6,805 nt of DNA from Escherichia coli (lineage in GTDB: Bacteria > Pseudomonadota > Gammaproteobacteria > Enterobacterales > Enterobacteriaceae), in the NCBI RefSeq assembly GCF_003334355.1, contig NZ_QOWP01000065.1. One strand, written 5' to 3'. Below the pieces are notes generated by a model. It searched no databases, was not told the origin of the DNA, and saw only the letters and a list, made by a program, of their open reading frames with translations. Positions 5,031 to 5,062 of this stretch are shown piece after piece; the first letter of the stretch is position 1; each line of letters starts with the position of its first letter. The translations under genes were made by a program, and so were the position numbers.

Positions 5031-5062
5031 TTTTCACTATTGTTAAATTGTTATAGTGAAAA
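5031..5062. promoter_or_regulatory. Candidate operator/promoter palindrome upstream of the gltS-like gene: TTTTCACTAT-N12-ATAGTGAAAA
   Basis: Perfect 10-bp inverted repeat with a 12-bp spacer, ending 28 bp upstream of the start codon; contains a TATAGT -10-like hexamer. Function is inferred. Confidence 0.35.

Follow-up and report, generated by a model that had tools for sequence, protein, structure and literature searches.

The inverted repeat upstream of gltS in the Tn10 core: candidate promoter sequence with probably incidental symmetry, and a distinct candidate operator of the adjacent jemABC operon

Described systems close to the sequence considered here include (i) the tet operators (tetO) of transposon Tn10, contiguous palindromes next to their cognate repressor gene, (ii) LysR-type promoters, in which the regulator recognises a T-N11-A dyad at about -55 to -65 and an activation site is located near -35, and (iii) sigma-70 promoters with an extended -10 element (TGn). 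The element in question is an inverted repeat at 5031-5062, directly upstream of gltS, in a 6,805-nt stretch of Escherichia coli DNA (contig NZ_QOWP01000065.1; the whole stretch is referred to as the window). The window represents the unique core of Tn10 with 100 % identity to plasmid R100; megablast of positions 4600-5400 retrieved 444 plasmids at >=99 % identity, with R100 at 100 %. The repeat lies in the intergenic region (443 nt, 29 % G+C) between gltS and the divergent jemABC operon, and a preliminary description had proposed it as a possible repressor operator, with the ArsR-like regulator of that operon (JemC) as a candidate binder.

The 32 bp are here tentatively assigned to the core promoter and start-site sequence of gltS, their perfect symmetry being probably incidental. 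The stretch would have been inherited together with gltS from a Providencia-like chromosome, with the right arm carrying the -10 hexamer TATAGT, the spacer carrying a conserved TGTTAAAT box, and the left arm occupying the usual place of a -35 hexamer. Boxes further upstream (4961-5030) probably bind an activator or repressor controlling gltS in the native host; the natural candidate for this role would be the LysR-type regulator encoded just 3' of gltS in relatives from Providencia and Xenorhabdus. The perfect dyad itself would represent a lineage-specific coincidence of A/T-rich promoter sequence and no recognition site of JemC. The features of the gltS upstream region are as follows.

4961-5030, + strand: conserved upstream regulatory block, holding the dyads below and AAAGTAACTT
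4964-4976: TAACT-N3-AGTTA, a T-N11-A dyad in the conserved block
5000-5016: GTTAA-N7-TTAAC, a T-N11-A dyad in the conserved block
4998-5027, + strand: alternative candidate promoter, TTGTTA (4998-5003), 18 nt, TAACTT (5022-5027)
5031-5040, no strand assigned: left arm TTTTCACTAT (sequence read and repeat finder; approximately -33 to -24 relative to a supposed start near 5064)
5041-5052, no strand assigned: spacer of 12 nt, TGTTAAATTGTT, the first 8 nt being TGTTAAAT
5053-5062, no strand assigned: right arm ATAGTGAAAA, covering five of the six bases of the -10-like hexamer
5049-5057, + strand: candidate extended -10 element TGtTATAGT (TG 5049-5050, TATAGT 5052-5057; sequence read)
5007-5018 / 5066-5077, no strand assigned: outer imperfect inverted repeat (11/12), nested around the 5031-5062 repeat (repeat finder)
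5079-5082, + strand: Shine-Dalgarno sequence GAGG of gltS, 7 nt 5' of the ATG and beyond the repeat, invariant in orthologs
5090-6295, + strand: gltS, sodium/glutamate symporter of 401 amino acids with PF03616 homologs (open reading frame and R100 annotation)

The right arm provides the best -10 candidate for gltS. TGtTATAGT agrees with TGnTATAAT at 8 of 9 positions; its TGn directly precedes the hexamer, whose second and sixth bases are A and T, respectively. No recognisable -35 hexamer is present 16-18 bp 5' of TATAGT, and a two-hexamer consensus scan found no promoter there; since the TG extension of a -10 element can compensate, a -35 element would be dispensable. Location and conservation pattern of the repeat, the lack of its symmetry in orthologs and the separate JemC box described below are direct observations; gltS promoter, start point and involvement of the LysR-type regulator are inferred. 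Neither data on the transcription start of gltS nor functional work on jemABC or the gltS promoter were found in the literature searched, in which the original Tn10 sequence descriptions were not covered.

Conservation of the region was assessed by aligning 12 orthologous upstream regions, i.e., those of Tn10, Providencia vermicola, P. hangzhouensis, P. huaxiensis, four other Providencia lineages and Xenorhabdus innexi. A further gltS group of 73 % identity (L011) was left out, its upstream region being unalignable and containing an assembly gap. Invariant or nearly so in the 12 orthologs are TTAACTAAAAGTTAT, AAAACTCATTGTTAAA, AGTTAAnCAAAGTAAyTT, TGTTAAAT, TCTGGTAAAC and the Shine-Dalgarno sequence; the entire 4961-5030 block is nearly invariant. 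The equivalents of the -11 A and -7 T (A5053, T5057) are retained in 12/12 orthologs. Positions 5049-5052 vary (TGTT, TGCA, AACA, CACA or CGCA). Most orthologs have weaker -10 hexamers (AAAAGT, AACAGT), and some lack the TG. TGTTAAAT is kept by all Providencia orthologs, its conservation reaching deeper than that of the arms. In P. hangzhouensis and P. huaxiensis, whose GltS proteins are >=90 % identical, the arms read TTATCGCTAA ... ACrGTGAAAG; in the remaining Providencia lineages just a 4-bp CACT ... AGTG core is left, and L010 as well as Xenorhabdus break even this core. Among the ten distinct orthologs, 62 % of the cells in the 10-bp stem are paired versus 61.4 % in shuffles, a single double change was seen in 100 cells, and the covariation score was equalled in 26 of 500 shuffles. 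In the sequences other than that of Tn10, axis 5046.5 does not surpass other axes, neighbouring ones included, in symmetry. Viewed as a generic operator, the sequence does have a dyad over the -10 (right arm on 5 of the 6 bases of TATAGT), but its symmetry is kept only by P. vermicola and the spacer core TGTTAAAT outranks the arms in conservation. Judged from this alignment, the palindrome is specific to the Tn10/P. vermicola lineage, and the ancestral symmetric core would have comprised at most 4-5 bp.

The P. vermicola counterpart allows the constraint on the repeat to be compared with that on its surroundings. At four-fold degenerate sites of gltS, 59 % differ between Tn10 and P. vermicola, i.e., neutral sites are saturated, and positions 4761-4960 are just 59 % identical. 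Across 4961-5089, 122 of 130 positions agree (94 %), with 65/70 in the 4961-5030 block and 31/32 in the repeat; the first 60 coding nucleotides of gltS are also unusually similar (56/60). An identity of 94 % despite saturated neutral sites indicates strong purifying selection on the whole 130 bp of promoter and leader. On these figures, the constraint falls on the block as a whole and the repeat arms are not singled out. In P. vermicola the repeat reads ATTTTTCACTA-N14-TAGTGAAAAAT with 11-bp arms: 5040 T to A abolishes the innermost pair, and two pairs are added on the outside by 5063 T to A. The latter, specific for P. vermicola, is the sole independent pair-creating change. A broader argument, namely that derived substitutions all create pairs (5033, 5054, 5062 and 5040; 5008, 5009 and 5016 in the outer repeat), was dropped as circular, since pairing in Tn10 is the very criterion by which the arms were delimited. 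Two apparent closer relatives of Tn10 on metagenome contigs (L009, L103; GltS 96 %, JemC 92 %, proteins 92-97 % identical) have upstream DNA equal to that of Tn10 except for homopolymer lengths; they are probably Tn10 with assembly errors and no independent lineages.

The repeat as such is beyond doubt: the sequence read and the repeat finder agree on TTTTCACTAT-N12-ATAGTGAAAA with arms complementary at 10/10 positions, and its overlap with TATAGT as well as the 28 nt between its last base and the gltS ATG (5090) were found as previously described. Extended outwards it matches at 11/12 positions (5030/5063 mismatched, 5029/5064 paired). Four of the ten pairs belong to plain T4/A4 tracts, a CG dinucleotide is lacking, and the half-site centres are 22 bp apart. 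The supposition that such a palindrome would be unlikely by chance holds only in a mild form: one or more perfect 10-bp inverted repeats with 0-20 nt between the arms arose in 3.6 % of 5000 dinucleotide-preserving shuffles of the intergenic region, and for the whole 6.8-kb window (1000 shuffles) at least one was obtained in 18 % and two in 2 %. The window contains exactly two perfect 10-bp repeats, both inside the jemA-gltS intergenic region. The second one is:

4868-4877 / 4892-4901: ATGGTATTTA-N14-TAAATACCAT

This repeat is situated mid-region, in DNA without constraint, and P. vermicola lacks it, which indicates that perfect repeats do arise here without being conserved. The gltS-proximal repeat is thus real and somewhat unusual, although not strikingly so when whole windows are scanned. 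As side observations, the second repeat directly adjoins a short hairpin rich in G+C, TGCGGATCCCGCA (4856-4868), and one of its arms has the heptamer ATACCAT in common with the tetC-tetD intergenic region (619-625).

The supposed chromosomal origin of the gltS region is based on protein searches and on gene order. Outside Tn10, the nearest GltS proteins are those of Providencia (87-88 %) and X. innexi (86 %). In all of these chromosomal relatives, the genes next to gltS on its 3' side encode a LysR-type regulator and a D-amino-acid dehydrogenase (NCBIfam PRK00711, above cut-off); a RidA gene comes next in the Providencia loci. P. vermicola chromosomes, found via a JemC search, harbour the full order RidA, DadA, LysR, gltS, divergent jemA-jemB-jemC, tetR and a tetA-like MFS (major facilitator superfamily) gene (L013, L014, L015; CP114796.1, 1072465-1085154, compared with window positions 657-6647). 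This locus is colinear with window positions 1453-6297 at 80.8 % nucleotide identity, the proteins sharing 96 % (GltS), 92 % (TetR), 83-84 % (JemA/B/C) and 79.5 % (TetA) identity, and a tetC-like gene is located a few kb beyond. The Tn10 gene order is embedded here in a gltS-LysR-DadA-RidA cluster native to Providencia, which suggests that the Tn10 core, the tet(B) determinant included, originated from a Providencia-like chromosome. No mention of a Providencia origin of Tn10 was found in the literature searched.

The LysR-type regulator gene is full-length and directly 3' of gltS in all chromosomal relatives, and in Tn10 it is reduced to the following remnant.

6526-6648: LysR-type regulator gene remnant of 41 codons (protein comparison)

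It shares 98 % identity with the N-terminal end of the protein from Providencia, and homology ends after the 41 codons. Tn10 gltS is thus separated from its probable native regulator gene. The two dyads of the conserved block (4964-4976 and 5000-5016) are of the T-N11-A type, the motif type used by LysR-type regulators. Also in the 4999-5016 area, TGTTA and AGTTA elements 11 bp apart resemble ArcA direct repeats (element and spacing as given in PMC4173790); these ArcA-like repeats 5' of gltS may be regarded as a lead. The lysR gene linked to gltS in P. hangzhouensis and P. huaxiensis has in its promoter region a perfect 10-12-10 repeat, GTATTAATTC-N12-GAATTAATAC (L097 8341-8372; L099 8340-8371), which encloses a -10-like hexamer TAGAAT and has the geometry of the gltS repeat with an unrelated sequence.

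Several observations weigh against an incidental symmetry of the gltS promoter. A perfect 10+10 repeat exactly over the -10 element is classical operator geometry. Perfect repeats of >=10 bp are about 8-fold more frequent than expected from composition in 172 kb of related Morganellaceae DNA (approximately 46 versus 6), so that many of them are supposedly functional, and two perfect repeats within the 443-nt region were obtained in only 0.2 % of shuffles. The outward shift of pairs in P. vermicola may be taken as a weak hint of maintained symmetry. Finally, if TTGTTA-18-TAACTT served as promoter, the repeat would sit in the 5' untranslated region. Because of the classical geometry and the 8-fold enrichment, the main rival explanation is a genuine operator for a repressor other than JemC, native to the Providencia donor and not necessarily encoded on Tn10, which as dimer or tetramer would bind to two half-sites located on the same face of the helix at a distance of 22 bp, and would keep RNA polymerase from the -10. 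This is considered somewhat less likely than incidental symmetry, yet a close rival of it. In support, the preliminary description's view that the repeat is in the right place for a repressor operator stands insofar as a protein bound across the -10-like element would occlude RNA polymerase; a dyad of 9 shared bp persists in P. vermicola with a compensating extension to 11 bp; the enriched perfect repeats include known operators such as tetO as well as the JemC box described below; and TGtTATAGT is a stronger -10 than that of most orthologs, which would make a repressor useful. On the other hand, all orthologs other than P. vermicola lack the symmetry though the promoter is conserved, conservation reaches deeper in the spacer than in the arms (contrary to the pattern of a typical dimer operator), and the retention in P. 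vermicola is already explained by the constraint on the whole 130 bp.

Further sites of such a repressor were sought in Tn10, related loci and metagenomes. In Tn10, the half-site occurs about as often as expected by chance (19 versus 14.7 copies). No convincing further site was found in 888 kb of related loci, where one site with a single mismatch and 12-nt spacing lies inside a P. hangzhouensis coding region, and a metagenome scan (shared 9-bp arms, non-Tn10 spacer) yielded 55 stretches, comprising three Tn10 copies and unrelated generic hairpins of varied composition. No candidate protein emerged. The assignment of the 32 bp to the gltS core promoter is retained as the preferred, if tentative, explanation.

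A function of the repeat at the RNA level has a low probability. In this case transcription would start at or upstream of approximately 5031, e.g., from TTGTTA-18-TAACTT, whose elements are invariant in all orthologs, and the repeat would form a 5' stem-loop stabilising the gltS mRNA or modulating its translation. A 40-nt segment folds with -8.4 kcal/mol in Tn10 and P. vermicola (-0.5 to -6.4 elsewhere), P. hangzhouensis and P. huaxiensis folding in the same register via G-U pairs (-6.4), and the nested repeats (5007-5077) could form a 71-nt hairpin of -16.3 kcal/mol (-16 to -17 in Tn10 and P. vermicola; -6 to -14 in the orthologs). However, the z-score of the latter is just -1.95 (12 of 200 shuffles equal), pairing in the stem is at the level of shuffles, the central pairs are broken in one P. 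huaxiensis strain, L010 and Xenorhabdus, and the Shine-Dalgarno sequence and AUG lie outside the structure. A conserved RNA hairpin was rejected, as covariation was not seen and the RNAalifold consensus omits the stem. Membership in an Rfam family was likewise rejected, the sole match (mir-361, 23.8 bits versus a gathering score of 70) being spurious. An intrinsic terminator was also discarded: just 2 of the 10 stem pairs are G-C, the loop comprises 12 nt, the stem is followed by TTCTGG with no T run, and the terminator scan remained silent. Separately, CTGGTA (5065-5070) is complementary to TGCCAG (5103-5108, gltS codons 5-7), both being invariant in 12/12 orthologs including synonymous positions; their pairing would enclose the Shine-Dalgarno sequence and AUG in a loop. 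As these elements never vary, they are uninformative on structure, for or against.

Little credence is given to the speculation that the palindrome is a young operator, which would have arisen in the Providencia lineage where the jemABC-tetR-tetA module joined gltS, and which would be bound by TetC, TetD or by JemC with a second, non-canonical specificity. If true, glutamate uptake would be switched together with a tetracycline/stress module later mobilised by Tn10.

The proposal that the ArsR-like regulator binds the gltS repeat and thereby links the accessory operon to the transporter is very improbable, since JemC appears to have a box of its own. JemC is an ArsR/SmtB-type winged-helix protein, jemABC shares its intergenic region with gltS, and the full palindrome occurs only where the two adjoin, i.e., in Tn10 and P. 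vermicola; this co-occurrence represents a single evolutionary lineage, however. A genome scan retrieved 80 loci in Enterobacterales, Vibrionaceae and a few other Gammaproteobacteria, nearly all of which contain jemA, usually jemB, and jemC in one operon; gltS adjoins the operon only in Tn10 and P. vermicola. TTCG-N8-CGAA was present in 74 of 81 jemA upstream regions (220 bp; loci L013-L096) versus 0.19 expected, always 68-80 bp 5' of the jemA ATG, and the 7 exceptions are one-off variants, including a symmetric double change to TTTG...CAAA (L070). The consensus is CATAyTTCG-N8-CGAAGyAT with a half-site spacing of 16 bp. The Tn10 copy is:

4695-4720, - strand: candidate operator of the JemC family, TATATTTCG-TTGCTTAT-CGAAGTGTT (jemA strand), 69 bp 5' of the jemA ATG; on the + strand, the core reads TTCG at 4700-4703 and CGAA at 4712-4715

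A position weight matrix built from 72 genomes, with Tn10 and P. vermicola excluded, scored 21.2 bits at 4695-4720 and -0.7 at the next best position of the window; the best score over the gltS repeat was -28. As JemC is the sole DNA-binding protein of the jemABC operon, this box is likely the JemC operator, serving autoregulation; no paper describing such a box was found. The gltS-proximal repeat differs from it in sequence (no CG), spacing (22 versus 16 bp) and position, sitting 385-416 bp from the jemA ATG (4646) and thus outside the 68-80 bp range, so that the connection between JemC and gltS is unsupported. Furthermore, the palindrome is absent from X. innexi, although jemA is divergent from gltS in this species as well and the cluster includes a jemC-like gene. 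The C-terminal half of JemC-family proteins contains invariant residues (C119, H122, C173, C175, H184) in the motifs RTCYxH and CLDWSER-FHLGG (alignment A4), which suggests that the ArsR-type DNA-binding domain is fused to a sensor domain for metal or redox state.

Binding by another Tn10 regulator, i.e., TetC (TetR family), TetD (MarA/SoxS-like) or TetR, is hardly credible: although all three are encoded on Tn10, with a tetC-like gene near the P. vermicola locus, and left arm plus spacer hold a marbox-like TCAC ... GTTAAAT, the agreement with the marbox consensus (AYnGCACnnWnnRYYAAAYn) is 9/14 specified positions on the + strand and 5/14 on the - strand with the GCAC-like and RYYAAAY elements one base too close, tetO is a contiguous 19-bp palindrome of other sequence, and the palindrome between tetC and tetD (AACATAC-N5-GTATGTT) is unrelated to the gltS repeat. 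The latter, a 7-bp inverted repeat (AACATAC-TGACG-GTATGTT, 626-644) in the 87-bp tetD-tetC intergenic region, may be considered a candidate TetC operator in its own right. None of the known operator consensus sequences compared (CRP, FNR, Fur, ArgR, Lrp, Cra, TrpR, PhoP, tetO, marbox) fits the gltS repeat.

The remaining genes of the window, with identities taken from the R100 RefSeq annotation, are the following.

155-571, - strand: tetD
annotated start at 659: tetC
within the open reading frame 1365-2618, approximately 1368-2570 according to R100, - strand: tetA(B)
2652-3275 (annotated): tetR(B)
3253-4646, - strand: jemABC operon, divergent from gltS
3253-3939, - strand: jemC, ArsR/SmtB-like winged-helix regulator, the one named in the preliminary description
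3947-4333, - strand: jemB
4326-4646, - strand: jemA, ABM-domain protein

The Tn10 sequence was described by Chalmers et al. 2000 and Lawley et al. 2000. The names jemA, jemB and jemC are presumably those of Chalmers et al. 2000, in whose work the Tn10 permease reportedly was functional when expressed.

The gltS repeat itself has little significance, representing at most one more promoter-overlapping inverted repeat on a Tn10 passenger gene; it appears to be undescribed before, yet is an ordinary kind of feature. The by-products of its analysis, i.e., the JemC-family box, the truncated LysR gene and the Providencia counterpart, are more useful. A plausible but unsupported link between JemC and gltS is removed, and a precise candidate operator is gained for the uncharacterised, widespread jemABC operon. 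The cut between gltS and the LysR-type gene at the edge of the Tn10 core bears on whether Tn10 gltS is expressed at all, and the whole core including tet(B) is traced to what would be a Providencia-like chromosome.

Compared with known systems, the gltS repeat resembles tetO of Tn10 in that an inverted repeat covers core promoter elements and is located between divergent genes in A/T-rich DNA, and the tetO pair in the P. vermicola relative is likewise a perfect repeat of >=10 bp (L015 7322). It differs from the contiguous 19-bp palindrome of tetO, with its adjacent cognate repressor gene, by 10-bp arms separated by a 12-bp gap and by an unrelated sequence. With the JemC-family box it shares the location in the jemA-gltS region and the overlap with promoter elements of a putative target gene, but has none of the fixed distance to jemA in about 80 genomes, the 16-bp spacing and the TTCG/CGAA core that distinguish this box. 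As in LysR-type promoters, T-N11-A dyads are found upstream of gltS, a LysR gene is located 3' in the chromosomal relatives, and a -35 element is lacking, as often in activator-dependent promoters; the palindrome itself, however, is no T-N11-A dyad and is not conserved alongside the LysR gene, and in Tn10 the regulator gene is cut to 41 codons. The -10 region resembles sigma-70 promoters of the extended -10 (TGn) type, the gltS candidate TGtTATAGT matching at 8/9 positions with no usable -35, and being stronger than the equivalent sequence in most orthologs.

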